The translations under genes and the position numbers were made by a program. The notes beneath the pieces were generated by a model. That model saw only the letters and a program-made list of their open reading frames with translations. It had not been told where the DNA came from and did no database searches. Of a stretch of DNA of 15,840 nt, positions 1 through 12,929 are shown piece after piece (the stretch's first letter is position 1; every line of letters begins with the position of its first letter). The DNA comes from a virus (Duplodnaviria > Heunggongvirae > Uroviricota > Caudoviricetes): positions 1-15,840 of IMG/VR virus record IMGVR_UViG_2737471850_000008, one strand, 5' to 3'.

Positions 1-678
1 CATACTCCAGTATCGCAATGGTTTATATCTTCATTACCATTTATATTCAATCCGCCTGGCGCTAACATCAATGGTGTATCGCTCCAGATTGCCACATCTG
101 GTGTGTTCTGGACGTTAGTCTGGGAATTACGCCTATACCTTGCAATTCCATTTTTATATCTGATAATGAAAAACATCAAATATAAAGAAGCATTTGTTAT
201 TTTTTTAATGGGATGTGTTTTATTATTCAAGTATTTTATAAACAATGAACAACACCTGAGTTATATAATGTATTTCCTTGCAGGATTTCTTGTCGCTACA
301 ATCAAGAGCAACAAGCGCCCATCAGATATAATCTGCGCTTTATTATTATTCGCAGCCATATATTTTACTCGACATGCTTACAACACTACAACTCCGCTTT
401 ATATGTTTATTGTTTTCTACACAATAAAGTGCGGATGTGATTACTTTGGCTTACTTACATCCCTGCCTGTAACTATGCTGGGAACCTGCAGTTTCTCCCT
501 TTATTTAGTTCATGGGATAACTCAAACAGTATCTAAACATTATTTATATAGTGCAGGAAACTATGTTTGGCAGATTTGTGCAATTATTGCGGCAGGTATC
601 ATTGCGCCGGTTATGTACAAATATGTCGAAAGTCGCAGCATCATACATAAGCGTCCTCAACTTCAGATTGCAAAGTAG
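1..678 (+). CDS. Acyltransferase family 3 membrane protein (OafA/Oac-like polysaccharide O-acetyltransferase), C-terminal part; 5' end lies outside the window
   Basis: Frame 1 is open from base 1 to TAG at 676-678. Contains acyltransferase-3-type motifs FWTLVWELRLY (cf. WSLxVE..FY) and SFSLYLVHG (cf. S-x-x-YLxH) and several hydrophobic TM-like segments. Strongly AT-rich compared with the phage genes. Confidence 0.7.
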   Translation, partial: HTPVSQWFISSLPFIFNPPGANINGVSLQIATSGVFWTLVWELRLYLAIPFLYLIMKNIKYKEAFVIFLMGCVLLFKYFINNEQHLSYIMYFLAGFLVATIKSNKRPSDIICALLLFAAIYFTRHAYNTTTPLYMFIVFYTIKCGCDYFGLLTSLPVTMLGTCSFSLYLVHGITQTVSKHYLYSAGNYVWQICAIIAAGIIAPVMYKYVESRSIIHKRPQLQIAK

Positions 679-1213: not shown

Positions 1214-1738
1214 TCATTCCGCGCCAGAACACATCAAATAAGGCCTTGTCACTTTCTCCCGCTTACGTGATCCCGCTGCGGCCGTTACGTTAAAAGTCAC
1301 GTACTGGCGAATTATCTGGATCAGCAACTGCGTGTTGTCCGCAATCTGGCTGTCTGTCACGCGAACCAGTATCACGTCCCAGTCAATCCCCGGCTGGCGT
1401 TCCTGCAGCTCAACGTACCCAATTCCCAGCCGTTCAAAGATGTTGATAAACCCCTCAACGGAACCGGCATCCCGCGCATTGACAAAGGCATATGCCACGC
1501 GCTTACGGAACAATGCCAGCGGTTCACCGTCAAAGCGGGTAATATCGCGGTCATACGCCAGCAGGTTCAGTAATGCCGGCGTACACGTCAGCGGATCGAA
1601 CTGATTCACTGGCCACGTAACCCAGCCGTAAACCTCAGTCCAGAACCGCCGCGCCGTTTTCAGCAGCTTCGCCGGCTCGCCTTTGTTCATCCAGGAAGGA
1701 AGCACCATCCCGGCCAGCTTTTTCAGGAACTCACTCAT
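1214..1738 (-). CDS. I: P2 gpI-like baseplate protein (tail protein I family)
   Basis: ATG at 1738 (MSEFLKK...) overlaps the stop of the upstream J-like gene by 8 nt. Segment TCTPALLNLLAYDRDITRFD resembles the recalled gpI motif (TCPANLLPWLAWAFSVDRWD). 174 aa versus about 176 aa for P2 gpI. Identification from memory, not a search. Confidence 0.6.
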   Translation of the reverse strand: MSEFLKKLAGMVLPSWMNKGEPAKLLKTARRFWTEVYGWVTWPVNQFDPLTCTPALLNLLAYDRDITRFDGEPLALFRKRVAYAFVNARDAGSVEGFINIFERLGIGYVELQERQPGIDWDVILVRVTDSQIADNTQLLIQIIRQYVTFNVTAAAGSRKREKVTRPYLMCSGAE

Positions 1739-2639
1739 TTTCAACAACAACCGCAAGCGATTTCAGGCGTGGAACACTCAGTTCGCTGGTGATATCACCC
1801 AGTGAAAAAGACAGTGATTCCGTCTGAGCAAATGTCCTGTGGATCTCCCGCCCCAGCTGAGAAAAGGAAAAACGCGAATATGGCCACGTCTTCCTGACGT
1901 CATAATCAGCATTCTCACGAAAAGCACAGCGGATCATGTTCTCCACCCCGTCCTTCAGGGTTTTCCTGTCCTCATCGCTGAAATTGGCCAGATTTTTGAC
2001 ATAAACTGTGACGGACAGATCATGAAGCGTTTCCGGCATGGGATAGCACTGCATATCATCACCGTGGCCGTGATGCCCCTGCGTGTTGATATAGTCATTG
2101 ACGGCATCCACGAACGGCGAAGAAGCCACCCCGCTGTCCAGCAACAGATACGCGTTGGCGGTACCGGGTCCCCTCGGCGCTTCATGTTCAAAGAAAATCC
2201 GGTCAATACTCAGCCCTGCAACGCCGGCAATCATCGACCGGTAAACGGCGTCAGTGTGGTAATTCCCCACCAGATTGAACTGATTGCGGCAGCGTTCGCG
2301 CAGCTCGTCATCACTTTCTTCATCCGCGCCCGGTACGGTCAGCCAGTTTTCTTCGCTGGCCACGTGGCTGATACCGTCAACGGCAACCGGCAGAATGCGG
2401 TAATATCCCGGCGCAAGGTTATATGCGCCCCCGGTGCCGGTGGCTTTTACCGGCAGTAATGCGCAGGCCGTACCGGAAGCGATCACTACATCCTCACTGG
2501 TGGCCAGCTCATACACGCGACCGTTAATGCGCTCTGTCTGGATACTGCCCCAGCCCGGTGTCCCGCTGTGCCGGGATGAACGCGATCTCGTCCATCTGGC
2601 TGTCAAATCCCTGCATTGCCCGTCTGGGCATGTTCGCAA
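1731..2639 (-). CDS. J: P2 gpJ-like baseplate protein; 5' end anomalous (TTG start in ORF track, Arg/Ser-rich first ~35 codons; possibly frameshifted or truncated)
   Basis: Central region ESDDELRERCRNQF resembles recalled P2 gpJ (ESDTDYRLRIQQAF). Size matches gpJ (302 aa). An ATG-initiated 35-codon ORF in another frame (ATG at 2631, MPRRAMQGFDSQMDEIAF...) overlaps the annotated N-terminus. Stop TGA at 1731-1733. Confidence 0.55.
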   Translation of the reverse strand: MRTCPDGQCRDLTARWTRSRSSRHSGTPGWGSIQTERINGRVYELATSEDVVIASGTACALLPVKATGTGGAYNLAPGYYRILPVAVDGISHVASEENWLTVPGADEESDDELRERCRNQFNLVGNYHTDAVYRSMIAGVAGLSIDRIFFEHEAPRGPGTANAYLLLDSGVASSPFVDAVNDYINTQGHHGHGDDMQCYPMPETLHDLSVTVYVKNLANFSDEDRKTLKDGVENMIRCAFRENADYDVRKTWPYSRFSFSQLGREIHRTFAQTESLSFSLGDITSELSVPRLKSLAVVVENE

Positions 2640-2669
2640 TGAGAAAATCGGTTAATGCCGTTAACTGGC

Positions 2670-3122
2670 TCATATCATGGCCACCGTAATGCGTTTCAGC
2701 CCTTTGATGCGGCGTACTGCCAGTGTGGACTCTGCAATCAGGCTGGAGCGGGTTTCGTCACTTTCCTGCCCCGGATGGCTCTCACGGCGACCAACAGACG
2801 CAAATTCGCCCATCAAATCAGCTTTGGCACGTGCATATACCGCTTTGCGATAACGGGCGCACAACAGATTTTCGCCGTCAATTTCCACGCCCGAAACGTC
2901 CGCCGCGCGCTCATGGCCAGCATTGCGATACCTTGCCGCCACACTGACCAGATCATCATTGATTTCGCCGGCTGCAGTCAGCAGTGCCTGGCGGATGGTG
3001 GCCGCATCAATATCGGCCGGAATGGTGCGCTGGGACTGAAAATCTTTCACGCTCAGGTCAGGCCAGAAGCCATCATTCGTCAGAGTGGCATCGTCAAAAT
3101 CAATTGAAGTTCCGCTGAACAT
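2670..3122 (-). CDS. L: P2 gpL-like head completion/stabilisation protein
   Basis: ATG at 3122 preceded by GGAG (SD); the track ORF starts at an upstream GTG (3161). C-terminal pattern ADVSGVEIDGENLLCARYRKAVYARAKADLMGEF resembles recalled gpL. It follows the M gene as in P2. Confidence 0.75.
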   Translation of the reverse strand: MFSGTSIDFDDATLTNDGFWPDLSVKDFQSQRTIPADIDAATIRQALLTAAGEINDDLVSVAARYRNAGHERAADVSGVEIDGENLLCARYRKAVYARAKADLMGEFASVGRRESHPGQESDETRSSLIAESTLAVRRIKGLKRITVAMI

Positions 3123-3215
3123 CCTGTTTCTCCGGAAAAAAGCGGGCTGGCCGGTTTCCACGGGCGATACGCTTATGCGATCCCCTCCACCGCGCCCGCT
3201 TTCGGGTCGGTAGTC

Positions 3216-3407
3216 TTACTCGCCGCGTTTTGCGGCCTGAATCTCACCTTCTTCAAACCACGCATCAGATGCGCGGCCGTCAGCAGTCTGATAGTGGATC
3301 AGATACTGATTGCAGCTGTTGGTGTACTCCGCACGGGCTTTGATATGCCCCTCTTCGCCGCTAATGGAAACTTCAACAACCTGGCCTAACTCATGCTTAA
3401 ACGACAT
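3216..3407 (-). CDS. Hypothetical 63-aa acidic protein inserted between small terminase and head completion genes
   Basis: ATG at 3407 lies 1 nt after the TGA of gene M (TGATATG coupling) and is preceded by GGGAG. No P2 gene occupies this position. No family recognised. Confidence 0.5.
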   Translation of the reverse strand: MSFKHELGQVVEVSISGEEGHIKARAEYTNSCNQYLIHYQTADGRASDAWFEEGEIQAAKRGE

Positions 3408-3408
3408 A

Positions 3409-4122
3409 TCAAACTCCCGTAGACTCTTTTTTCAGCGCCCGCAGACGCGCAGCAATACGCTGCAACATCGTGCCAACACCACATTTAGGGTCGAATCCCT
3501 TCGCCTGCTCCAGCAGTTCCTTAGCCCGGAGCAATACTTCCCTGTCTTCCGTTGCCGCTGCGCGTGGCTCTCCGTTTTCATCGCGTAGCAGGTGCAGACC
3601 GGCAAACTTCAGGTATTTGGCCTTAATGACCTCATACACATTCCAGTGCTGCGTCACGTTTTCCAGCGTACGGCCAAAATACGGCTCCACATCATGCCCC
3701 TGTACGGCTTCCGCTTCCGCCCAGGACAACACCGTATCCGCCACAAACACCGGGAACGTACTGCCGAACGCGGCCGGGGTTTCCTGCCCCCGCTGGATTG
3801 CCACATCCGCCCAGTCCAGCGCCTGGTCAAACTGGCCTGTATCAAACAGCCAGACGACACACCAGGCAAAAACAGGATTCTGTTGCACACTGTCACCTTC
3901 CAGCCAGGATTGCGCGGTTGGCATCCAGCGCGGTAACAGCACATCACGCTTAAATTCCATTCGCTCAGCGCGGCTTTCAATCGCTGCAGCTGCGGCGACA
4001 TCTTTCTCCAGCGCGACAATCTGAATATGCAGGCTGGTTTCCGTGTCCAGAGACTGCTGCTGTCGCAGTAACCGCTCCGCTTCAATTCGTGCGCTGTGGC
4101 GCTGTGCCGGTGACAGTTGCAT
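3409..4122 (-). CDS. M: P2 gpM-like terminase small (endonuclease) subunit
   Basis: 237 aa; ATG with AAGGGGGAT SD; positioned between N and L as in P2; sequence character consistent with the gpM family (from memory). Confidence 0.8.
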   Translation of the reverse strand: MQLSPAQRHSARIEAERLLRQQQSLDTETSLHIQIVALEKDVAAAAAIESRAERMEFKRDVLLPRWMPTAQSWLEGDSVQQNPVFAWCVVWLFDTGQFDQALDWADVAIQRGQETPAAFGSTFPVFVADTVLSWAEAEAVQGHDVEPYFGRTLENVTQHWNVYEVIKAKYLKFAGLHLLRDENGEPRAAATEDREVLLRAKELLEQAKGFDPKCGVGTMLQRIAARLRALKKESTGV

Positions 4123-4132
4123 TAAATCCCCC

Positions 4133-5161
4133 TTACTCGCCTGCCGGAGGCGCGACAGGTGCCCCGATAGCTACCGCACTTTCATCAAACGCGGCGTACA
4201 GTTCCGGATACTCAACCGCATAACCTTCGTTACGCAGGTATTTGTTTTCGTACTGTTTACGGTCTTCCACAAACTCCGCTTTACGCTGACGCGTGCCGCG
4301 CTGGGTGTAGATGTGCAGGTTTGGCAGTGTCGTAACAATCATGCGTTTGCCTGGCATAAACGGCGGTACGTAAGCCGTGCGGCCGGCGATGCTGTCAGAC
4401 AGCAGTTGCGCGGCGATCTTCTCCGTGGGTTTGTCTGCTTTCTGATACAGACGGAACGACTCCGCCGCGACCAGATCAGCGCCGACAAGAACCACCAGGC
4501 GTGGATCATTACGGTACTGTGCCGGGATTTTGGCGTTGATAAGGTCGGAGGCCATTGCATCCAGCGACACGTAATCGCCTTTCCCGTCACCGTCAAGCAC
4601 CACCGCATCAGTGATGATCTGCTGGCCGTCCTTCCACTCTTTGACGATCTGATGCCAGCCCTTGTTCACATCCTCGCCGTTCGGGTTGGTTTCCGCGTTC
4701 GTGGTCTCGGCCACTTTGGTACCGTTAAAGCCGATACGCAGCATATCCAGCGCAAACGCCTGATTGGTGAACTCCTGAACACGCTGGAAAAACTCGTTTT
4801 CATCGCCGGCGTTCGCCCAGACAGAAAGCAACTGCCAGGTGAGTGCGGCGCATGAGTCGGTCTCGACCAGACTGTAATCATTACCACTCACGCCCACTTT
4901 CTTACGGAAGCGGCCATCCAGTACACGCCCGGTATACAGGCCAGAGCTGCCAACCGGAACCACCTGCCCCTGCAGCTGATCGACATCGGCAACGGTGATC
5001 AGATTCAGGAAATCAGACTGCTCCATCAGCGCATTGCGCAGCTGGGTTTCTTTGGGGTCGGTGAGTGCAAACCAGCGTTCGCTGTCGGTCGCCCCGTAGG
5101 ATTCACGCAGCCCGGTGTGATACTGAAGCAGAAACTCACGGGCTTTCGCATTTAATTGCAT
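4133..5161 (-). CDS. N: P2 gpN-like major capsid protein
   Basis: 342 aa; ATG with AAGGA SD; C-terminal region (DPRLVVLVGADL...YVPPFMPGK...) resembles recalled P2 N (DPDLVVIVGRQLL...VPYFPAD); lies in O-N-M order. Confidence 0.85.
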   Translation of the reverse strand: MQLNAKAREFLLQYHTGLRESYGATDSERWFALTDPKETQLRNALMEQSDFLNLITVADVDQLQGQVVPVGSSGLYTGRVLDGRFRKKVGVSGNDYSLVETDSCAALTWQLLSVWANAGDENEFFQRVQEFTNQAFALDMLRIGFNGTKVAETTNAETNPNGEDVNKGWHQIVKEWKDGQQIITDAVVLDGDGKGDYVSLDAMASDLINAKIPAQYRNDPRLVVLVGADLVAAESFRLYQKADKPTEKIAAQLLSDSIAGRTAYVPPFMPGKRMIVTTLPNLHIYTQRGTRQRKAEFVEDRKQYENKYLRNEGYAVEYPELYAAFDESAVAIGAPVAPPAGE

Positions 5162-5195
5162 ATTCTTTTTCCTTAAAGAAAAGTAGTGTTATCCC

Positions 5196-6035
5196 TTACA
5201 GGAAATTGAAGCCTTTTTTGCCCTTGCTGAATTTCTTGTCCGGCAGTTGAGTAACTTTGTTATTCAGCTTGCTGAAGTTTTTCACCAGCTCCGGCAGGTT
5301 CCCCACCAGACGCGCAAAATCTTCGGTGTCCACTACTTCCTTCACGGTGTCCACATCGTCCTGCACATCAGATACCGCTTCTTCCGCCTCACCCAGACGG
5401 GTTTCAATAGCAGATACGCGCTTATCAATGGCATCCAGCGCTTCAGCCAGCGCCTGTAAGGCATCAGACTGTGAAGGTTCCTGCTCCGGGGTCTGCTCCG
5501 GTTCTTCGATACTGAAAAAATGGCGCCAGCCCTTTTTCGCTGTCTTTGACATTCCCTTTTCCTTTTTAAATTCCCTGACTTCATCAAACGCCAGCGGCTT
5601 GTATGGTCCGATGCGTTTTCCCCTGGTGCGGCTGAAACGTAACCGTGTGGTGCTTACCCCGGCCGGACTGTCAGTAATGGCCAGTCCCTCAAGATAGGTT
5701 TTCCCGGTATTTCTGAAATTGCCGTCCGGTGTAAACTCCGGTGATAAAAATAAAAGCTGACCGTCTGCATTTGCCTGTAGCAATGAAATCGCCGGACAGA
5801 GGCGGGCATATAAACGAAGAATACCTTCATCATCCCGCTCGGCTTTTACTTCCAGCACCTCCCCCATATTCCCGAAATTACGGGAATGTTCCGGCCATAA
5901 CAGCGCGGTATACAAAGAGGGGTCATATAATTCAGCGGCATCAAGCAACCATTGTTCTTCAATAAATCGCTTATCAACCGTTTCACCCGCAGTGGCGATA
6001 CAAATCCAGTTTGTTGCCAGTTGTGAACCTGACAT
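5196..6035 (-). CDS. O: P2 gpO-like capsid scaffolding protein/protease
   Basis: ATG at 6035 (MSGSQLATNW...) preceded by GGAGG; the track ORF extends to 6095. N-terminal WICIATAGETVDKRFI...GEVLEVKAE resembles recalled gpO (FFRIGVEGDTCDGRVI...GDVAELKAE). Acidic C-terminal half typical of scaffolds. Confidence 0.8.
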   Translation of the reverse strand: MSGSQLATNWICIATAGETVDKRFIEEQWLLDAAELYDPSLYTALLWPEHSRNFGNMGEVLEVKAERDDEGILRLYARLCPAISLLQANADGQLLFLSPEFTPDGNFRNTGKTYLEGLAITDSPAGVSTTRLRFSRTRGKRIGPYKPLAFDEVREFKKEKGMSKTAKKGWRHFFSIEEPEQTPEQEPSQSDALQALAEALDAIDKRVSAIETRLGEAEEAVSDVQDDVDTVKEVVDTEDFARLVGNLPELVKNFSKLNNKVTQLPDKKFSKGKKGFNFL

Positions 6036-6163
6036 ATTGCCTCCGTTCATGCTGCGGTTTTCAGTATCGCCAATAAAATTAACCGCCGCATTCACTTCAT
6101 TTCGGATATAGGCTATTAGCCGAACACATCAGAAATAAAGCGGGATTTAATATACAAACGCCC
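6036..6163. promoter_or_regulatory. Divergent intergenic region between O and P; expected location of late promoters
   Basis: Position between divergently transcribed head operons, as for P2 PO/PP. No canonical TGT-N12-ACA Ogr box was found by eye, so promoter elements are not defined. Confidence 0.35.
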
Positions 6164-7960
6164 GTGCATAATGTGTGCATGGCTAAATATTCAGAAGAAT
6201 TAAAAGGCGTTGCGCGGGCGCTTTATTTAAAACGCTATACCCCGCAGGAAATTGCCAGCGAACTTAATCTGCCTAACAGACGCATTGTCTATTACTGGGC
6301 GGAGAAATATTGCTGGGCGGAATTACTCAGTCATGAATCCACCGAAGATGCATTAAACCGTCGCATTCAGTCACTGACATTACGTGAAGGGAAATCGGAG
6401 CTGGAGCTGCGGGAGCTGGACAGTCTCGTTTCTCACCTGGTGAAACTACGTGCACAGCACAATAAGCATCAGGAAAAGCTGGCAGAAATTAAACACAGTG
6501 AAAATGATGCGCCGGCGCGTCAGTCCGGTGGCGACGAAAAGCCCCGGAAACGTGGCAAGTACAAAAAGAACGACATCAGCGGACTGACACAGGAAGATTT
6601 TGACCGGTTCGCGCTGGAGCACCTTTTCGGTTACCAGAAACACCTTCGCGCTAATCTTCATCAGCAAATCAGGAACATCCTGAAAAGCCGCCAGATTGGT
6701 GCAACCTGGTATTTCTCAATAGAAGCCTTTGAGAATGCGGTCATGACAGGCGATCCGCAAATCTTCCTGTCCGCATCAAAGGCTCAGGCGGAAGTATTCC
6801 GCAGCTATATCGTCAACATTGCGGAGCAGTATTTCGGCGTGGAGCTGACGGGAAACCCCATCCGCCTCTCCAACGGCGCGGAGATGCGATTCCTGTCCAC
6901 CAACAAGAACACCGCCCAGTCATACAGCGGCCATCTGTACTGCGATGAATATTTCTGGGTACCCAACTTTGCAAAATTAAACGAAGTGGCCAGCGCGATG
7001 GCCACACACGACAAATGGCGAACCACCTACTTTTCCACCCCCAGCAGCAAAACGCACCAGGCGTACCCGTTCTGGACTGGTGAAGAATGGAAGCGCGGTG
7101 ACAAAAAACGCGCGCGCGTACAATTTCCCACGGAGAAGGAGCTGCGCGACGGTGGACGGTTATGTCCTGATGGGCAGTGGCGCTACATCATCACAATGGA
7201 AGACGCGATCGCAGGCGGGTTTAATCTCGCCAGCATCGGGAAGCTGCGCAACCGCTACAACCGCGACACTTTCAACATGCTGTATATGTGCGTGTTCGTG
7301 GACAGCAAGGACAGCGTATTTTCGTTCTCTCACGTAGAACGCTGCTGTGTAGATCCGGATATCTGGGAGGATCATGACGAAAACCTGCCCCGGCCGTTCG
7401 GCAACCGTGAAGTGTGGGCGGGTTATGACCCGGCTCGCAGCGGAGACACCTCCACCTTCGTGATCATCGCGCCGCCGATAGTGGCCGGCGAAAAATTTCG
7501 GGTACTGCGTGTATTCCACTGGCAGGGGATGAACTGGAAGTGGCAGGCGGCACAGATTAAGAAGCTGTTTGGCCAGTACAACATGACCTACATCGGCATT
7601 GATATCACTGGACTGGGTAGCGGTGTCTTTGAAGACGTTCAGCACTTTGCCATGCGTCAGGCAGTGGCGATCCGCTACGGCGTCGAGACCAAAAATCGTC
7701 TGGTGATGAAGATGATCGACGTTATCGAAGACGGCCGCGTGGAATGGGATAAGGAGAAGACCGAAATCGCCGCCAGCTTTATGACCATCCGCCGTACGTC
7801 CACGGCCAGCGGCAACGCAATGACTTTCGTCGCCGATCGCACAGCAGAAACAGGACACGCAGACAGTTTCTGGGCTATCGCCCATGCCATTGACAACGAG
7901 CCATTAAACTTTGAAAACCAGCGAAAATCACGCTGGGGTAACTTAGGGAAAGCAGCATGA
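6164..7960 (+). CDS. P: P2 gpP-like terminase large (ATPase) subunit
   Basis: About 593-598 aa; the track start is GTG at 6164 and the first ATG is at 6179 (MAKYSEELKG). Size and position match P2 P. Stop overlaps the Q start (ATGA at 7957-7960). Confidence 0.85.
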   Translation: MHNVCMAKYSEELKGVARALYLKRYTPQEIASELNLPNRRIVYYWAEKYCWAELLSHESTEDALNRRIQSLTLREGKSELELRELDSLVSHLVKLRAQHNKHQEKLAEIKHSENDAPARQSGGDEKPRKRGKYKKNDISGLTQEDFDRFALEHLFGYQKHLRANLHQQIRNILKSRQIGATWYFSIEAFENAVMTGDPQIFLSASKAQAEVFRSYIVNIAEQYFGVELTGNPIRLSNGAEMRFLSTNKNTAQSYSGHLYCDEYFWVPNFAKLNEVASAMATHDKWRTTYFSTPSSKTHQAYPFWTGEEWKRGDKKRARVQFPTEKELRDGGRLCPDGQWRYIITMEDAIAGGFNLASIGKLRNRYNRDTFNMLYMCVFVDSKDSVFSFSHVERCCVDPDIWEDHDENLPRPFGNREVWAGYDPARSGDTSTFVIIAPPIVAGEKFRVLRVFHWQGMNWKWQAAQIKKLFGQYNMTYIGIDITGLGSGVFEDVQHFAMRQAVAIRYGVETKNRLVMKMIDVIEDGRVEWDKEKTEIAASFMTIRRTSTASGNAMTFVADRTAETGHADSFWAIAHAIDNEPLNFENQRKSRWGNLGKAA

Positions 7961-8976
7961 AAAAACGGAAATACAGGGAACGCCGCACCGCCAGCAAGCC
8001 GCGCCATATGAGCCTTATTACCCTGGGTAAACCGGAACCCATTCTGACGACCGGCACAAACTACACAGACGTCTGGTATGACAATGAAGCGGAACACTGG
8101 ACGCTCCCGATTGACCGGCTGGCGCTGGCGCAACTGGTGAACCTGAACGCGCAGCACGGCGGTGTGCTGTATGCCCGTCGCAATATGGTGACGGCAAACT
8201 ATAAAGACGGCGGACTGACGCATGAACAGCTTGGTGCAGCCGTGTTCGACTGGCTGACCTTCGGTGATGTGGCCATTCTGAAAGTGCGTAACGGCTGGGG
8301 GGATGTGGTGGCACTGTACCCGCTGCCGGCACTCTATACCCGCCAGCGTAAGACCGGGGAGTTTGTGGTACTGCAGCAGGGTGAACCGATGATTTATCCG
8401 CCTGAAGATATTATTTTTCTCAGGCAGTACGATCCGCAACAGGCGATTTATGGTCTGCCGGATTATATCAGCGGTATCCATTCTGCCCTGCTTAACGGTG
8501 AGGCAACAATTTTTCGTCGGCGTTACTACCATAACGGCGGACACACAGGTGGCATGATCTACTGTAACGACCCAAATATGACTGATGAAGTGGAAGAAGA
8601 AATTATTCAGAAGCTGGAGCAGTCAAAGGGGATCGGGAACTTCAGCACCATGTTTGTGAACATCCCCAAAGGCGATCCGGACGGCATCAAATTTATCCCG
8701 ATTGGGGATATCAGCGCCAAAGATGAGTTTCAGAACATCAAGAGCATCAGCGCCCAGGACGTACTGACCGCGCATCGATTCCCGGCAGGACTGGCGGGGA
8801 TTATCCCGACGAACGGCGCAGTAATGGGAGATGTTGAGAAAGCGTCCAAAACCTACCGCAAAGCAGAAATTTTGCCCATTCAGCGCATGTTTACCGCCGC
8901 AGTGGAACAGGAAAGTGATGTACCGCCCCACCTGTACCTTAATTTCCTGAAAGACAGTGAGCTGGAAGGTGATTAA
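7957..8976 (+). CDS. Q: P2 gpQ-like portal protein
   Basis: 339 aa versus about 344 aa for P2 Q; translationally coupled to P; family identification from memory. Confidence 0.85.
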   Translation: MKKRKYRERRTASKPRHMSLITLGKPEPILTTGTNYTDVWYDNEAEHWTLPIDRLALAQLVNLNAQHGGVLYARRNMVTANYKDGGLTHEQLGAAVFDWLTFGDVAILKVRNGWGDVVALYPLPALYTRQRKTGEFVVLQQGEPMIYPPEDIIFLRQYDPQQAIYGLPDYISGIHSALLNGEATIFRRRYYHNGGHTGGMIYCNDPNMTDEVEEEIIQKLEQSKGIGNFSTMFVNIPKGDPDGIKFIPIGDISAKDEFQNIKSISAQDVLTAHRFPAGLAGIIPTNGAVMGDVEKASKTYRKAEILPIQRMFTAAVEQESDVPPHLYLNFLKDSELEGD

Positions 8977-9029
8977 TGTTCGCAAAAAGGCTAAAATATC
9001 ATCGTTTTCCAACTTCCGGAGCGATGGAT

Positions 9030-9305
9030 ATGCGGGTAATGAAGGTTTACTGTCCGGTATGTGAGGCAAGGGCTGTTATCAAAAAAACAGCCCGAAAACA
9101 CAAGGAACTGTCGGATTTATATTGCGCGTGTACCGATGTTGAATGTGGTCACACTTTTGTGATGAATATGACATTCTCACATACCATCAGCCCCAGCGCC
9201 AAATCCAGCGATGCGTTGATCGCCACTATCTGTAACAGCCTTGATATCCAGCAAAAGCAGCTGATGTTAAAGTTTCTGAGTCAGGACGGCACTGCTGCCG
9301 CATAG
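9030..9305 (+). CDS. ogr: Ogr/Delta-family zinc-finger late transcription activator, with a C-terminal extension relative to P2 Ogr
   Basis: CPVC...(22 aa)...CACTDVEC four-cysteine arrangement, as in Ogr/Delta. GGAG 9 nt upstream of the ATG at 9030; alternative starts at 9024 and 9042; the track ORF begins at 8976. Confidence 0.75.
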   Translation: MRVMKVYCPVCEARAVIKKTARKHKELSDLYCACTDVECGHTFVMNMTFSHTISPSAKSSDALIATICNSLDIQQKQLMLKFLSQDGTAAA

Positions 9306-9306
9306 A

Positions 9307-9337
9307 AAAAAGCACCGCTACCGGTGCTTTTATTTTC
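9307..9337 (+). terminator. Rho-independent terminator after ogr
   Basis: Stem AGCACCG / CGGTGCT (9311-9317 and 9322-9328), loop CTAC, followed by TTTTATTTT; A-run upstream. Confidence 0.75.
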
Positions 9338-9383
9338 TGAGATGTAACAGATTCCCATCTATCAACGTCGATGAATGACCAAG

Positions 9384-9444
9384 TGATTAATAGTCCCCCC
9401 CTCCTAAACATGATATTATCTTTCCAAATTTTGGGAGGCATCTT
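9384..9444 (+). promoter_or_regulatory. Putative promoter and RBS of the glycosyltransferase moron, containing a C7 homopolymer
   Basis: TATTAT (9414-9419) as candidate -10; TTAATA/TGATTA about 21-24 bp upstream as candidate -35; C7 run at 9395-9401 lies between them; strong SD GGGAGG at 9432-9437. Confidence 0.3.
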
Positions 9445-10164
9445 ATGTTAATAGTCTCAGTTCTTAAATGTAGTAAAGAGTTTACCCCTAAACACGCCCA
9501 ATGGCTTCATCGTCAGTTCAAAGATATTCCATCTATATGTTTAACCGATGCAGATAATATTCCTGGAGTTAACACAACCCCTTTGCTTTATAACTGGCCG
9601 GGATGGTGGTCTAAAATTGAACTATTTAATCCTAATCACCCAGTCCTTGGAGACCAAGATTTACTCTATTTTGACGTAGATGTTGTGGTCACGGGAGATA
9701 TTCATATTTTCGAAGGTGCGAAGAAATTTACAATGCTTCGGGAGTTTAACCATGCCTCAAGAGTAAACTCATCAATAATGATGATTCCGGCGTCGATTAA
9801 AAAGACGATTTGGGAACAATTCATTATTGATCCTGAGAAAATTATGCGCAATTGTCAGACTGAAGACAAATGGGGTGATCAGGGATTTCTCGGTAGCATC
9901 ATAAAACCAGCCCTATGGCAGGATATCATTCCTGGCTCAATTGTTAGTTATAAATGTGACATCGCCACCCCCTCGATGATTGGCTTCAATGCAAATTTAG
10001 CCTCTGAGGCTGCGACAGGGAAAGTCCCTGATAATGTGGCGGTTGTTTGCTTTCATGGCAGTCCACGCCCCTGGCGTACTGGTTTTGATTGGGTTCCTTC
10101 GTTTTCCCTGCGGGATACTCTGTACGGTAAATTAAAGAACTTTAAAATAAGAATGAAGCAATAA
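9445..10164 (+). CDS. GT8-family-like (glycogenin/LgtC/RfaJ-type, DxD) glycosyltransferase; AT-rich moron
   Basis: Motifs in GT8 order and spacing: DxD (LLYFDVDVVV), NSS (cf. FNSGV), WGDQGFL (cf. GGDQGILN), CFHGSPRPW (cf. HFxGxxKPW). AT-rich compared with the flanking phage genes. Strong SD and ATG. Confidence 0.6.
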   Translation: MLIVSVLKCSKEFTPKHAQWLHRQFKDIPSICLTDADNIPGVNTTPLLYNWPGWWSKIELFNPNHPVLGDQDLLYFDVDVVVTGDIHIFEGAKKFTMLREFNHASRVNSSIMMIPASIKKTIWEQFIIDPEKIMRNCQTEDKWGDQGFLGSIIKPALWQDIIPGSIVSYKCDIATPSMIGFNANLASEAATGKVPDNVAVVCFHGSPRPWRTGFDWVPSFSLRDTLYGKLKNFKIRMKQ

Positions 10165-10201
10165 AGATAACGCCCCTATTGCTTCAATGTTCGCTCCTTC
10201 C

Positions 10202-10219
10202 CCTAACAATAAAGTTAGG
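10202..10219. terminator. Hairpin CCTAAC-AATAAA-GTTAGG between the convergent glycosyltransferase and primase-helicase genes; possible bidirectional terminator
   Basis: 6-bp perfect inverted repeat read directly; AT-rich stem, so weak. Confidence 0.3.
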
Positions 10220-10232
10220 CACTAGTGAACCG

Positions 10233-12890
10233 TTACTTTTCCCGGCCAAATATCCAGCAGCGGAATGTTTCCGGCATCCGTTGCATATCCCCTTTACCAC
10301 GATTATGGCGCTCACTTACCGCGCTGCGCGTGGTGCTTTGTCTGATAAACCGGCGCTCATTGCCGTTTTTAAGCAGCTTTTTAATTTCCGTTAACGTGAA
10401 CGGAATACGCTGCCGGTGTGCTGCGGCGACCTCTTCCATGTGATTGAAATTAACCGCGATTTCATTTTCATCTGATGAATGATTGATGCCATAAGGTGCC
10501 AGTTCATCCAAGTAATCAAACAGCTCCCAGAACTCCTGCACCAGAGGATGATCCTTTTTAAGTGCCTGACAACGTTCAACGGCCAGCGCGGTGATGGCTT
10601 CACGCGTTTTTTCTATACGTTCAACCGGCACCGGTACAACAAGTGCAAGCGCCTCCAGCAAGCCCACAAGCTGCGCGTGATTCTTTGCAATACGGATATG
10701 GCGAATACTGCTATTAGACTCCAGCTCATTCCTAGCTCGCTCGTACCCCCTGCCGAACGTCTGCATGATTTCTTTTTCGCGCATGGTGGCCAGTAATGTG
10801 AATCCGGATACCTGGCTAACGGGGAGTTGTTCAAGTCGTTCTGCAGCGTGGCGCGTCTGAATGGACTGGCCGCGCTTGTCGGTATAGATGTGGATGATAC
10901 GCTCCAGAAACGCCTTGCTGCCGTCTGTGTCGGCATTTTGCGCTATCACAATACTTCCCCTGAACGGCGGCTCATACGTCTCGTTATTGTTCGATTTGAT
11001 ACCCACGGCGCGGGAGGCACGACCGTTATACAGTGATTTCAGCTCGTCCCAGTCAAAAGCGCGTTGCTTGGCGTTATCGGTAGTACGGTCGCCCTCAATC
11101 AGCACAACCGGCAGATTACCGACCTGGGCGAAGTTACGGCCACGCGCGGCGGCGGTAGATTTAGATGGGTCAAACCCTTCGTATTCCTCACGGCCGGCGA
11201 GCTTCCAGAGAAATTCTATCAGCGTGGATTTACCTGTCCCCGGCTCGCCCACGATTTCCAGAAACGGAAATGACTTGTCACGCTCGCGGATTTGTTCGGC
11301 AAACAGCGACCCCAGCCAGAACGCCAGCGCCACATACCCTTTTTCACCAAATGCCGTCCAGATATCGTCTACCCAACCCGTAGTAAACTCGTTCAGCTTC
11401 GGATTCAGATCCAGCGCCGGCGTGAGGCTCAGGCTCTTAACGCTGGCACTGTTGATTTCGAAGTAATCCTCGTCGTTCATCTCATACAGCCGGCCATCGC
11501 AAACGGCCACGCGGTTAAACAACCAGGCGGCATAATCCTTGTTATAGCCGATGAAATTCTGCGTCTTTACCTCTTTGATTTCAGGGAGGCGCATCTGGAT
11601 GAACTTATCCAGCTGTTTGGTGCTGCCTGTGTACACCGCCCCTTTGGCGATGTGCAGCAGACGCTTTTTGAACTCGGCGGAGCTGGTGAGCTGATTAGCC
11701 GTGAAAGTATCTTTCACGGCTGGCCGGTTAGGCATACTGACTTTCACGTAATACCAGGACTCGTCCGTAGGTTCAGACCGCTGAAAGTAAAGCGGCGTCA
11801 GCCAGCAGTTAGCTATTTCGGTCACGCCGCCTGACTCTTTAACCGCCCGTTCTTTGGCCTCCCACTCCATCACCACTTCGGTACCGGTATTGGTGATGCG
11901 CTCATAGGCTCGCATATACCTGTCCAGATCCAGCTCAAACCAGTACATGCGGGAGTTATGCTCAAAGTAGAACGAGTGCCACTCGTTATGCTGATGCATG
12001 AGCAGCGCTTTCTCAGTCGGGCTTTTTGCCAGAAGGAGATCGCCATAGTAGCGATAATTTTTAATGTCCGACTTACTGAACCGGTTACGTAACAACAGGT
12101 CATTCCAGTCCAGCGATGCCGATGATTTCACCGGCTGCGCGGCACGAGTTTTCCATCCTGCAGCATCACTACGGGCAGCGAACGCCAGTGTGTGCTTTGT
12201 GCCGGCTTTATCGCCGTCAAACGCCCATACAAGACGTGGACGTGGTTTTTCACCCAGTTCTTTGGCCAGCGTATCCAGTGCGGCCAGCGGATAGTTGTTA
12301 CTGCTCAGTGTGGCAACTGCAGGTAACCCTACCTGGCACAGACTCAGCGCGTTGAAGATTCCCTCAGTGATCCAGATTTCGTTCACTTCCTGCAGGTTGA
12401 TAAAGGGAGGAACCCACCAGTGACCGACATAGCTTCCCCTGATGTTGGCTTTCTGCTTACCGAAGCGCTGCGGCTGGTCAATGATGCGCTCCCATGTTGC
12501 ACCGCATGACAGCGAAAATCTGACCGTTGCCGACCCCATGCCATCTTTCACGAATGCACCCTGGGTAAAACAGCCTTTTAATGGCTCAGTCTCCAGCCCT
12601 CTGGCCTCGCGCAGATACGCCTCAGCTACTGCATGGGGGTTATCTTCTGTGGTCTGGTAACGTTTTGACCAGTCTTCAAAGATATCCGGATACAGCTCTT
12701 TCACGACAATCTGATGTGCGCAGTTATTTTCACGGCCACATTTCAGAATCCAGGGCTTTTCTATGCTGGTAAATAATTCGCGCTTACGACAGGCAGGGCA
12801 AACGCCCTGCTGCAAATACTTATCCCGCTCTTTAAATTCAAAGTCCCGAACAAGACGGCGCACAACGTCCTGTTGTATCGTTTCGTTCAT
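10233..12890 (-). CDS. Primase-helicase of the P4 alpha type (zinc-binding N-terminus, Toprim primase, P-loop NTPase)
   Basis: ATG at 12890 (MNETIQQ); the track ORF starts at TTG 12926. CPACRK...(16 aa)...CGRENNC zinc motif; Toprim-like ITEG and FDGDKAG; Walker A GEPGTGKS and Walker B-like VVLIEGD. Confidence 0.8.
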   Translation of the reverse strand: MNETIQQDVVRRLVRDFEFKERDKYLQQGVCPACRKRELFTSIEKPWILKCGRENNCAHQIVVKELYPDIFEDWSKRYQTTEDNPHAVAEAYLREARGLETEPLKGCFTQGAFVKDGMGSATVRFSLSCGATWERIIDQPQRFGKQKANIRGSYVGHWWVPPFINLQEVNEIWITEGIFNALSLCQVGLPAVATLSSNNYPLAALDTLAKELGEKPRPRLVWAFDGDKAGTKHTLAFAARSDAAGWKTRAAQPVKSSASLDWNDLLLRNRFSKSDIKNYRYYGDLLLAKSPTEKALLMHQHNEWHSFYFEHNSRMYWFELDLDRYMRAYERITNTGTEVVMEWEAKERAVKESGGVTEIANCWLTPLYFQRSEPTDESWYYVKVSMPNRPAVKDTFTANQLTSSAEFKKRLLHIAKGAVYTGSTKQLDKFIQMRLPEIKEVKTQNFIGYNKDYAAWLFNRVAVCDGRLYEMNDEDYFEINSASVKSLSLTPALDLNPKLNEFTTGWVDDIWTAFGEKGYVALAFWLGSLFAEQIRERDKSFPFLEIVGEPGTGKSTLIEFLWKLAGREEYEGFDPSKSTAAARGRNFAQVGNLPVVLIEGDRTTDNAKQRAFDWDELKSLYNGRASRAVGIKSNNNETYEPPFRGSIVIAQNADTDGSKAFLERIIHIYTDKRGQSIQTRHAAERLEQLPVSQVSGFTLLATMREKEIMQTFGRGYERARNELESNSSIRHIRIAKNHAQLVGLLEALALVVPVPVERIEKTREAITALAVERCQALKKDHPLVQEFWELFDYLDELAPYGINHSSDENEIAVNFNHMEEVAAAHRQRIPFTLTEIKKLLKNGNERRFIRQSTTRSAVSERHNRGKGDMQRMPETFRCWIFGREK

Positions 12891-12929
12891 AAATAATCCA
12901 GATGTGAAATAATGGGTAAAAGGCAAAAA

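Follow-up and report, generated by a model that had tools for sequence, protein, structure and literature searches.

The DNA analysed here, hereafter the window, is a stretch of 15,840 nt from IMG/VR virus record IMGVR_UViG_2737471850_000008 that represents a decayed P2-like prophage of Escherichia coli. The region under study, window positions 9306-10232, is bounded by the portal and ogr genes (7957-9305) on one side and by a primase gene (10233-12926) on the other, and its sole open reading frame (ORF) runs from 9445 to 10164 on the plus strand. The encoded protein of 239 residues is predicted to be a GT8-like glycosyltransferase with a GT-A fold and belongs to the PmgQ/PHROG 1962 family, within which it falls into a clade of stand-alone genes whose products carry a basic C-terminal tail. 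With a GC content of 41.0%, as against 53.5% for window positions 1300-9300 and 52.1% for the primase gene, it is the single AT-rich gene that an earlier note, written from the sequence alone, had placed here; 602 homologs are detectable in the protein collection and at least 578 in IMG/VR. The gene is very probably an active GT8-like moron.

On its 5′ side, the terminase-portal-ogr operon ends in an intrinsic terminator on the plus strand (9308-9337), in which a GC-rich 10-bp stem closed by a 4-nt loop (9308-9331) directly follows the stop codon of the Ogr/Delta-like gene and is itself followed by the T-run ATTTT. The structure folds at -16.2 kcal/mol (z -4.5) and none of 200 shuffled sequences folded equally well, in agreement with the terminator previously marked at this position, and it separates the glycosyltransferase gene from late transcription. 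The gene has its own Shine-Dalgarno sequence, as was also proposed, with GGGAGG at 9433-9438 lying 6 nt 5′ of the ATG. The promoter postulated alongside it stands only in part: the extended -10-like element TGATATTAT at 9411-9419 is the sole promoter candidate visible for the gene, but it is weak and lacks a recognisable -35 element, and a sigma-70 consensus scan of the plus strand returned no site. A promoter that is conserved and travels with the gene was considered and rejected, as the upstream regions of close homologs in other backbones are unrelated and contain -10/-35-like elements of their own. The downstream hairpin that had been assigned to the gene, at 10154-10186 and overlapping its stop codon, is real, together with a smaller one described below (z -6.0 on the plus strand, -5.5 on the minus strand), but belongs mainly to the opposite strand. 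Read on the minus strand, its 14 pairs are followed by the U-run UUCUUAUUU, while no U-tract follows on the plus strand, and for this reason it likely terminates transcription of the convergent primase operon, not of the glycosyltransferase gene, and is possibly bidirectional. A second small hairpin, CCTAAC-N6-GTTAGG at 10202-10219, lies in the 68 bp that separate the gene from the stop codon of the primase gene (10233).

Single-sequence searches of Pfam (E up to 10), NCBIfam, PADLOC and the Protein Data Bank (PDB) returned no match to the protein. Against PHROG 1962, labelled 'glycosyltransferase' in the moron category, residues 1-223 align with profile positions 1-224 of 230 at an E-value of 5.8e-81. 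Identity is 40% to P1 PmgQ (over 92% of the protein) and to P7 HdmD; Escherichia phage Chlobot encodes a protein that is 75% identical, and Citrobacter phage phiNP one that is 43% identical. A family profile was built from 86 homologs, and its significant matches in the PDB are all GT8 chains, namely Gat1 (E 2.4e-8), glycogenin-1/-2 (3.5e-6 to 1e-4) and GlyE (1e-3). The Pfam GT8 family, PF01501, is touched weakly by nine of the 86 members at E < 0.1 (best E 0.0059), and the protein itself lies below the curated PF01501 threshold.

The three motifs that had been read by eye in the earlier note are present and coincide with conserved motifs of the 86 homologs, among which W54, K57, D77, D79, G144, D145, P163, S168, K170, H204, G205 and P207 are invariant. 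The DxD motif D77-V-D79 (9673-9681), the predicted metal and nucleotide-sugar binding site, aligns with the D-A-D of glycogenin. The GDQG motif at residues 144-147 (9874-9885), in which Q146 is at least 90% conserved, aligns with glycogenin GGDQGLL and would be the counterpart of its GDQG active-site motif; the equivalent in LgtC is presumably D188-Q189. The HGSPRPW motif at residues 204-210 (10054-10074), with P209 and W210 each at least 90% conserved, may correspond to the H...KPW metal/diphosphate motif of GT8 enzymes: R208-P-W aligns with glycogenin K-P-W, but the invariant H204 lies two residues off the glycogenin His in the hidden Markov model (HMM) alignment.

An AlphaFold2 model computed from this alignment is highly confident (pLDDT 96.7, pTM 0.93) and forms a single globular domain, and no transmembrane (TM) segment was found, the highest 19-residue Kyte-Doolittle mean being 1.0, which agrees with the soluble protein envisaged before. 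The top Foldseek matches of the model in the PDB are LgtC, glycogenin, the GT8 entry 3tzt, Gat1 and GlyE, at TM-scores of only 0.5-0.6 and sequence identities of 10-16%, and its best viral structural neighbours include fusions of GT8 and MptE-like domains. The GT-A fold and the DxD and D-Q motifs are thus shared with GT8 proteins such as LgtC, glycogenin, Gat1 and GlyE, while the protein is shorter than these at 239 residues, scores below the PF01501 threshold and carries its own N-terminal motif, VLRSGGxY. The earlier GT8 assignment therefore holds by profile and by predicted fold but not by Pfam score, and the protein is best described, on sequence and model, as a GT-A enzyme of a GT8-like clade with an intact active-site signature, belonging to a separate family and not to GT8 as defined by score.

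Of 5,426 complete E. coli genomes, 18-19 carry intact copies of the prophage, inserted between raiA and pheL. These copies hardly differ, so that this near-clonal element gives no information on variability of the slot within E. coli. Slot variability was judged from relatives in other genera, for which six prophages (L002-L007) were available whose primase is 86-94% identical to that of the window and whose portal is 93-94% identical in five of the six and 47% in L007. Across the window and these six relatives, the segment between the ogr stop codon and the primase stop codon takes seven different states. L002 (10696-11344) has a DUF2528 gene together with an 83-aa gene there and L006 the 83-aa gene alone; L004 (10799-11806) has a gene whose 335-aa product combines TM segments with a long coiled coil, L003 and L005 have some 200-340 bp with small ORFs, and L007 has only 27 bp. 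Because the six relatives have either different genes or none at this place, the glycosyltransferase gene is variable cargo and not a core gene, as its description as accessory cargo had anticipated. The other genes found in the slot in L002-L006 are uncharacterised candidates for hotspot functions.

The gpA-gpQ (old/tin) accessory hotspot of P2 was defined by Rousset et al. 2022 (PMC9122126), and the slot described here is its topological counterpart in a lineage-specific version. Like the P2 hotspot, it is a transcriptionally insulated segment with the portal gene on one side and the replication gene on the other, and its content differs among close relatives. It differs in that an ogr-like gene stands between Q and the slot, in that the cargo is a glycosyltransferase with no recognised defence system (no PADLOC match) and in that the replication gene is not gpA: the 897-aa product is a primase-helicase with Toprim and DUF5906 domains and no Phage_GPA domain. 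The placement at the tin/old locus is accordingly correct as to position, between portal Q and the replication gene, but not as to the identity of the latter; a true gpA is present in the Ewingella locus L023, included for comparison. Surveys that look for the hotspot by the keyword gpA would therefore pass over this lineage. No non-coding element is conserved in the slot across all relatives, and the 19-nt cos sequence of P2 has no match within four mismatches in the window or in L002-L007; five-mismatch matches occur elsewhere, none of them in the slot.

Where identity to the window protein is 50% or more, the homologs are lone genes that occupy prophage ends or hotspots of other backbones, with a GC content of 37-42% in flanks of 47-58% in most contexts checked, the gap being small or absent in L106 and L107. 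A Citrobacter prophage of the same type (L008) carries its homolog at the opposite end, exactly at the position of the E. coli acyltransferase gene described below. In a Mu-like Salmonella prophage (L011) the gene sits among tail-fibre genes with a hexapeptide acetyltransferase next to it, and in classical P2-like prophages of E. albertii and other hosts (L012-L017) it is found at the end, after the tail-fibre and tail-fibre assembly protein genes, with GT4 fragments in L013. Further copies lie at the end of another type of myovirus prophage (L016) and at the end of a Klebsiella prophage (L107), and one homolog occurs on a Vitreoscilla chromosome, where phage genes are absent from the vicinity. 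Of the stand-alone close-homolog loci in IMG/VR, about half fall no more than ∼350 bp from one end of the predicted prophage contig. The gene is thus mobile among at least five prophage backbones.

Two further E. coli loci are heavily decayed: a prophage between mntR and mntS (L104, E. coli Combat13F7) and a lambdoid remnant at bioA-ybhB that carries the gene at its ybhB end together with IS1 (L105, E. coli SW070917). Their homologs, at ∼70-73% DNA identity, are intact despite the decay, which suggests that the gene is kept after the phage dies. With the window included, the gene is intact in three degraded prophages, and the copies in 18 genomes and on one IMG/VR contig match at 100% identity.

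A survey of 80 IMG/VR loci divides the family in two. The 13 complete members of the window's clade are 238-242 aa long with a C-terminal extension of charge +5 to +8, and none of the 13 loci has a PmgO-like neighbour. In the window protein, the extension is a basic helix at residues 222-239 (10108-10161) with a net charge of +5 that is specific to the stand-alone clade. Among homologs of at least 47% identity the tail charge is +5 to +11, except in P0034 (+3); a basic tail also arose independently in P0049 and in the Halomonas protein P0054. The short homologs (n = 65, ∼190-210 aa) lack the basic tail and match their flanks in GC, and a PmgO-like gene lies within 3 kb of 48 of the 65, on the same strand in each case and upstream in all but one; four more are fused to a PmgO-like domain, and among the rest some have truncated flanks. 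The family therefore consists of a partner-carrying module of lytic or morphogenesis operons and of a stand-alone, AT-rich, basic-tailed moron clade.

The partner-carrying form, a conserved phage module in which PmgQ is accompanied by one or two MptE/DUF115-like proteins (PmgO, PmgP), is found in varied settings. In P1 (L018, P1 79.5-82.2 kb), pmgQ is the last gene of the pmgN-pmgO-pmgP-ppp-pmgQ operon under a C1 operator; in the lambdoid phage phiNP (L019 5882-7666), pmgO-pmgP-pmgQ follows the lysis genes; in a siphovirus head-tail operon (L021 5851-7606), a PmgO-like gene is accompanied by an FkbM methyltransferase gene and the glycosyltransferase gene; and in the Ewingella P2-like prophage (L023 5342-7663), the module, which here includes a further DxD protein of 190 aa, lies directly 3′ of the portal gene in a true gpQ-gpA hotspot. 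The two partner proteins, PmgO and PmgP, are paralogs of each other (hhalign 97%) that weakly resemble MptE/DUF115, their Pfam MptE-like matches lying below threshold, and their PDB matches, including the Cst-II sialyltransferase and 5mu5, are non-significant (E 0.07 or worse). P1 PmgQ and P7 HdmD share with the window protein the PHROG 1962 family and the motifs WPGWWSK, DxD, GDQG and FHGxPRPW. However, P1 pmgQ ends a C1-repressed lytic operon with two MptE-like partners and its product has an acidic C-terminus, the tail being absent or acidic in P1- and phiNP-type homologs generally, whereas the window gene is an isolated, AT-rich gene preceded by a terminator, lacks an MptE/DUF115-like partner anywhere in the window and encodes the +5 tail. 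None of P1 pmgQ, pmgO and pmgP is required for the formation of plaques (PMC10695390).

The reading we favour, though with slightly less than an even chance of being right as a whole, is that this P2-like prophage between raiA and pheL carries a self-contained, horizontally acquired moron for a soluble hexosyltransferase that modifies a host envelope glycan and so brings about lysogenic conversion. The window's clade would have left an ancestral lytic glycosylation module of the P1 pmgO-pmgP-pmgQ kind, losing the MptE/DUF115-like partner and gaining the basic C-terminal tail. The enzyme would be a Mn2+/DxD-dependent, GT8-like and presumably retaining GT-A glycosyltransferase that takes a hexose from a uridine diphosphate (UDP)-sugar. 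We infer that it would be expressed from the prophage and would modify a lipid-linked envelope glycan of the host from the cytoplasmic face of the inner membrane, most likely the lipopolysaccharide (LPS) core, with an O-unit or enterobacterial common antigen (ECA) intermediate as the alternative. The likely benefit of the surface change would be receptor masking against other phages.

Several lines of evidence point in this direction. GT8 includes α-hexosyltransferases of the LPS and lipooligosaccharide core such as LgtC, and the LPS core enzymes WaaO, WaaJ, WaaR and WaaT are also GT8 members; the appearance of LgtC as a top structural match of the model is thus a circumstantial pointer to an envelope glycan. 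Since the protein has no TM segment, it would act on the cytoplasmic side, and the basic tail peculiar to the clade could attach it to the anionic inner membrane, a use that LgtC is believed to make of its own basic C-terminus. An amphipathic membrane anchor is not claimed for the tail, which is basic but has a modest helical hydrophobic moment. Where other cargo accompanies the gene, it is of polysaccharide type, an acetyltransferase in L011 or a GT4 in L013, and the interchangeable slots occupied by the glycosyltransferase gene and the Acyl_transf_3 gene in this phage lineage are a further circumstantial pointer to envelope glycans. A chromosomal homolog with a basic tail in Halomonas binhaiensis (L020 7001-10087) adjoins a WaaZ_KDO_III-family gene, of 47% GC in a 57% GC genome, and a UDP-glucose dehydrogenase gene. 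Pointers to a benefit to the host rather than a virion function are that the gene is intact in three degraded prophages, is separated from the late operon by a terminator and has a non-essential relative in P1 pmgQ.

Other observations weigh against this interpretation. The Halomonas locus is the single example found of an LPS-core-type neighbourhood, and a possible link between PmgO/PmgP and WaaZ, the KdoIII transferase, was set aside as a hint only (hhalign 28-35% over ∼70 columns). The nearest structures include protein-directed GT8 enzymes (Gat1 acting on Skp1, glycogenin, and GlyE acting on an adhesin), and the fold therefore does not favour a lipid acceptor. The hydrophobic moment of the C-terminal helix is 0.21 over 18 residues and 0.53 in the best 11-mer, and the helix is modelled with high confidence and may pack on the domain. 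Relatives in lytic or morphogenesis operons, such as the C1-controlled P1 operon, the post-lysis position in phiNP and the siphovirus head-tail operon with FkbM, could serve virion or phage-protein glycosylation. The sigma-70 scan upstream of the gene was likewise negative, and the literature search found no experiment or paper giving a substrate for any family member, nor any functional study of PmgQ, PmgO, PmgP, HdmD or a prophage GT8-like LPS-core enzyme. The more specific proposal that the basic-tail clade constitutes a one-gene lysogenic-conversion system, adding a sugar from the cytoplasmic side to the LPS core and not the O-antigen, blocking core-binding phages and travelling among P2-like, Mu-like, lambdoid and other prophages, is possible but rather doubtful.

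The contexts of the relatives also bear on the idea that capsid or tail proteins are decorated in lytic growth, in line with the 'putative morphogenetic function' label of P1 PmgQ. Short homologs do lie inside late or structural operons, in the siphovirus head-tail operon with FkbM, immediately behind the portal gene of the Ewingella P2-like prophage and behind the lysis genes of phiNP; the window gene itself shares its strand with the portal-ogr operon that precedes it, and many stand-alone homologs adjoin tail-fibre and tail-fibre-assembly genes. However, the window gene is AT-rich foreign DNA that a strong terminator cuts off from the late operon, it has no counterpart of the partner enzyme of the operon-embedded homologs, in other prophages it points against the structural genes, and it persists intact in remnants without most virion genes; moreover, knock-down of P1 pmgQ leaves plaque formation unaffected (PMC10695390). 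Virion glycosylation is thus unlikely here. A host protein such as a surface appendage, an adhesin or a regulator might instead be the acceptor, with altered physiology or a block to phage as the outcome, given that several of the closest GT8 structures (Gat1, glycogenin and GlyE) act on proteins or protein-linked glycans and that the family's usual partner is MptE/DUF115-like. The Maf proteins, which glycosylate flagellin, belong to the MptE/DUF115-like superfamily. Precisely this partner is missing from the stand-alone clade, though, no candidate acceptor is encoded nearby, and the neighbouring cargo (hexapeptide acetyltransferase, GT4 fragments, WaaZ-like and Ugd genes) is of polysaccharide type, making a protein target improbable.

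Position in the counterpart of the P2 gpA-gpQ defence hotspot (PMC9122126) invites the suggestion that the enzyme is an intracellular anti-phage effector that glycosylates incoming phage DNA or proteins, or depletes UDP-sugar, without remodelling the surface. A 2026 survey reported that a defensive role is predicted or demonstrated for many of the unknown genes of P2/P4 hotspots (PMC13586616), which lends the suggestion some weight, as do the defence-like cargo (HicB, TumE and SLFN/AlbA_2) that follows the glycosyltransferase module in the Ewingella P2-like prophage and the basic tail, which could bind nucleic acid. Set against this, no PADLOC-DB family was matched at E up to 1, and most members of the clade sit at prophage termini beside tail-fibre genes and not in the Q-A hotspot, such that a defence effector of this kind is quite improbable. 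Phage GT-A DNA glycosyltransferases have been reported to be closest to the base-J glucosyltransferase JGT and to TarP (10.1101/2023.12.21.572611). DNA glycosylation was rejected in particular because neither JGT nor TarP is among the matches listed for the model and because no hydroxymethylcytosine or hydroxymethyluracil (hmC/hmU) pathway genes, or other hypermodification genes, were seen among the scanned proteins or in the annotated prophage. That the gene is an inactive passenger of a decaying remnant would fit the two internal deletions of the window prophage and the rarity of the gene (18 of 5,426 complete E. coli genomes), but is very improbable in view of the full-length ORF with all invariant catalytic residues, its 100% identity in 18 genomes and one IMG/VR contig, the highly confident structure model and the intact homologs of other remnants.

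Envelope-glycan modification by a prophage gene has well-known precedents in the seroconversion morons of temperate phages, gtrABC of P22/SfV-type phages and oac of Sf6. Gtr consists of three membrane proteins and acts in the periplasm via undecaprenyl-phosphate-glucose, while Oac is an integral membrane acyltransferase. By analogy, the window gene would share with these its nature as prophage-borne, AT-rich, sugar-modifying cargo at ends, often beside receptor-binding-protein genes, and the expected outcome, a change of the surface and the exclusion of other phages. It differs in encoding a single soluble GT-A enzyme without a TM segment. The Acyl_transf_3 gene at window positions 1-678 is, by comparison, of the integral-membrane Oac kind.

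The family was already annotated, as PHROG 1962 'glycosyltransferase' and under the same name for P1 PmgQ in RefSeq, and with P1 PmgQ and P7 HdmD among its members it is not unrecognised, as the earlier note had suggested it might be; the kind of hotspot was known as well. The new elements are modest, namely the support for a GT8-like fold and motifs, the status of the gene as variable cargo and the split between the module and the basic-tail moron. As it stands, the gene is a plausibly annotated glycosyltransferase moron, a useful but not a surprising result. If envelope-glycan modification is its true role, prophages would possess a compact and mobile means of rewriting the enterobacterial LPS core with one soluble enzyme, with effects on phage host range, on susceptibility to phage therapy and possibly on serum or immune recognition. 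Defence-finding pipelines and keyword-based hotspot surveys would overlook it, as the protein has no Pfam or PADLOC match and the replication gene is not gpA. On the more specific one-gene proposal, it would add a type of receptor-masking defence that current defence catalogues lack. The pattern within the family, a module with an MptE-like partner as opposed to a stand-alone moron, would also offer a testable entry to the long-unassigned 'pmg' genes of P1.

Minor sequence features were also noted just 5′ of the gene. Pairing of CTTTCC-N7-GGGAGG at 9420-9438 could, speculatively, hide the Shine-Dalgarno sequence in read-through transcripts from the late operon, while the sequence would perhaps stay free in a transcript begun after the putative -10 element at 9411-9419. 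A C-rich 19-mer, TCCCCCCCTCCTAAACATG, lies at 9394-9412 and recurs at 16 of 19 positions at the equivalent place in L003 (∼10842, minus strand), the Salmonella relative without the glycosyltransferase gene; L002 and L004-L007 do not have it. Possibly it marks the scar of an insertion. It does not correspond to the cos sequence of P2, and its interpretation as a cos site was rejected on account of its recurrence in L003 only.

The other genes of this P2-like prophage are arranged in the window as follows. The left part encodes a small terminase, a P2-family capsid protein and a GPO scaffold on the minus strand, and the large terminase, portal and Ogr/Delta genes lie 5′ of the glycosyltransferase gene on the plus strand. 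On the 3′ side, the primase-helicase gene is followed on the minus strand by genes for an Rv2179c-like exonuclease and a Cox-like product, the latter label being taken from the annotation of the intact prophage L001, and then by the repressor and integrase genes. The 109-aa Ogr/Delta-like gene begins at the portal stop codon (8976), a position that differs from that in P2, where the gene lies near the attachment site (att). Compared to L001, the window copy is a deletion remnant with two internal deletions, whose junctions lie near 1300 and 2544; window positions 1300-2544 correspond to L001 5539-6783 and 2543-15840 to L001 13644-26941, and the missing blocks are the tail-fibre block and the block from the baseplate to the sheath. 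An AT-rich Acyl_transf_3 gene, OafA/Oac-like in kind, is represented by its 3′ part at window positions 1-678 (ORF listed as 103-678), beyond which come ∼600 bp of non-coding DNA that is likewise AT-rich; in the intact copies this gene is cargo at the raiA-side end of the prophage. In the Citrobacter relative, the glycosyltransferase homolog stands at the corresponding prophage end in place of the acyltransferase gene, and the prophage is inserted at a different site.

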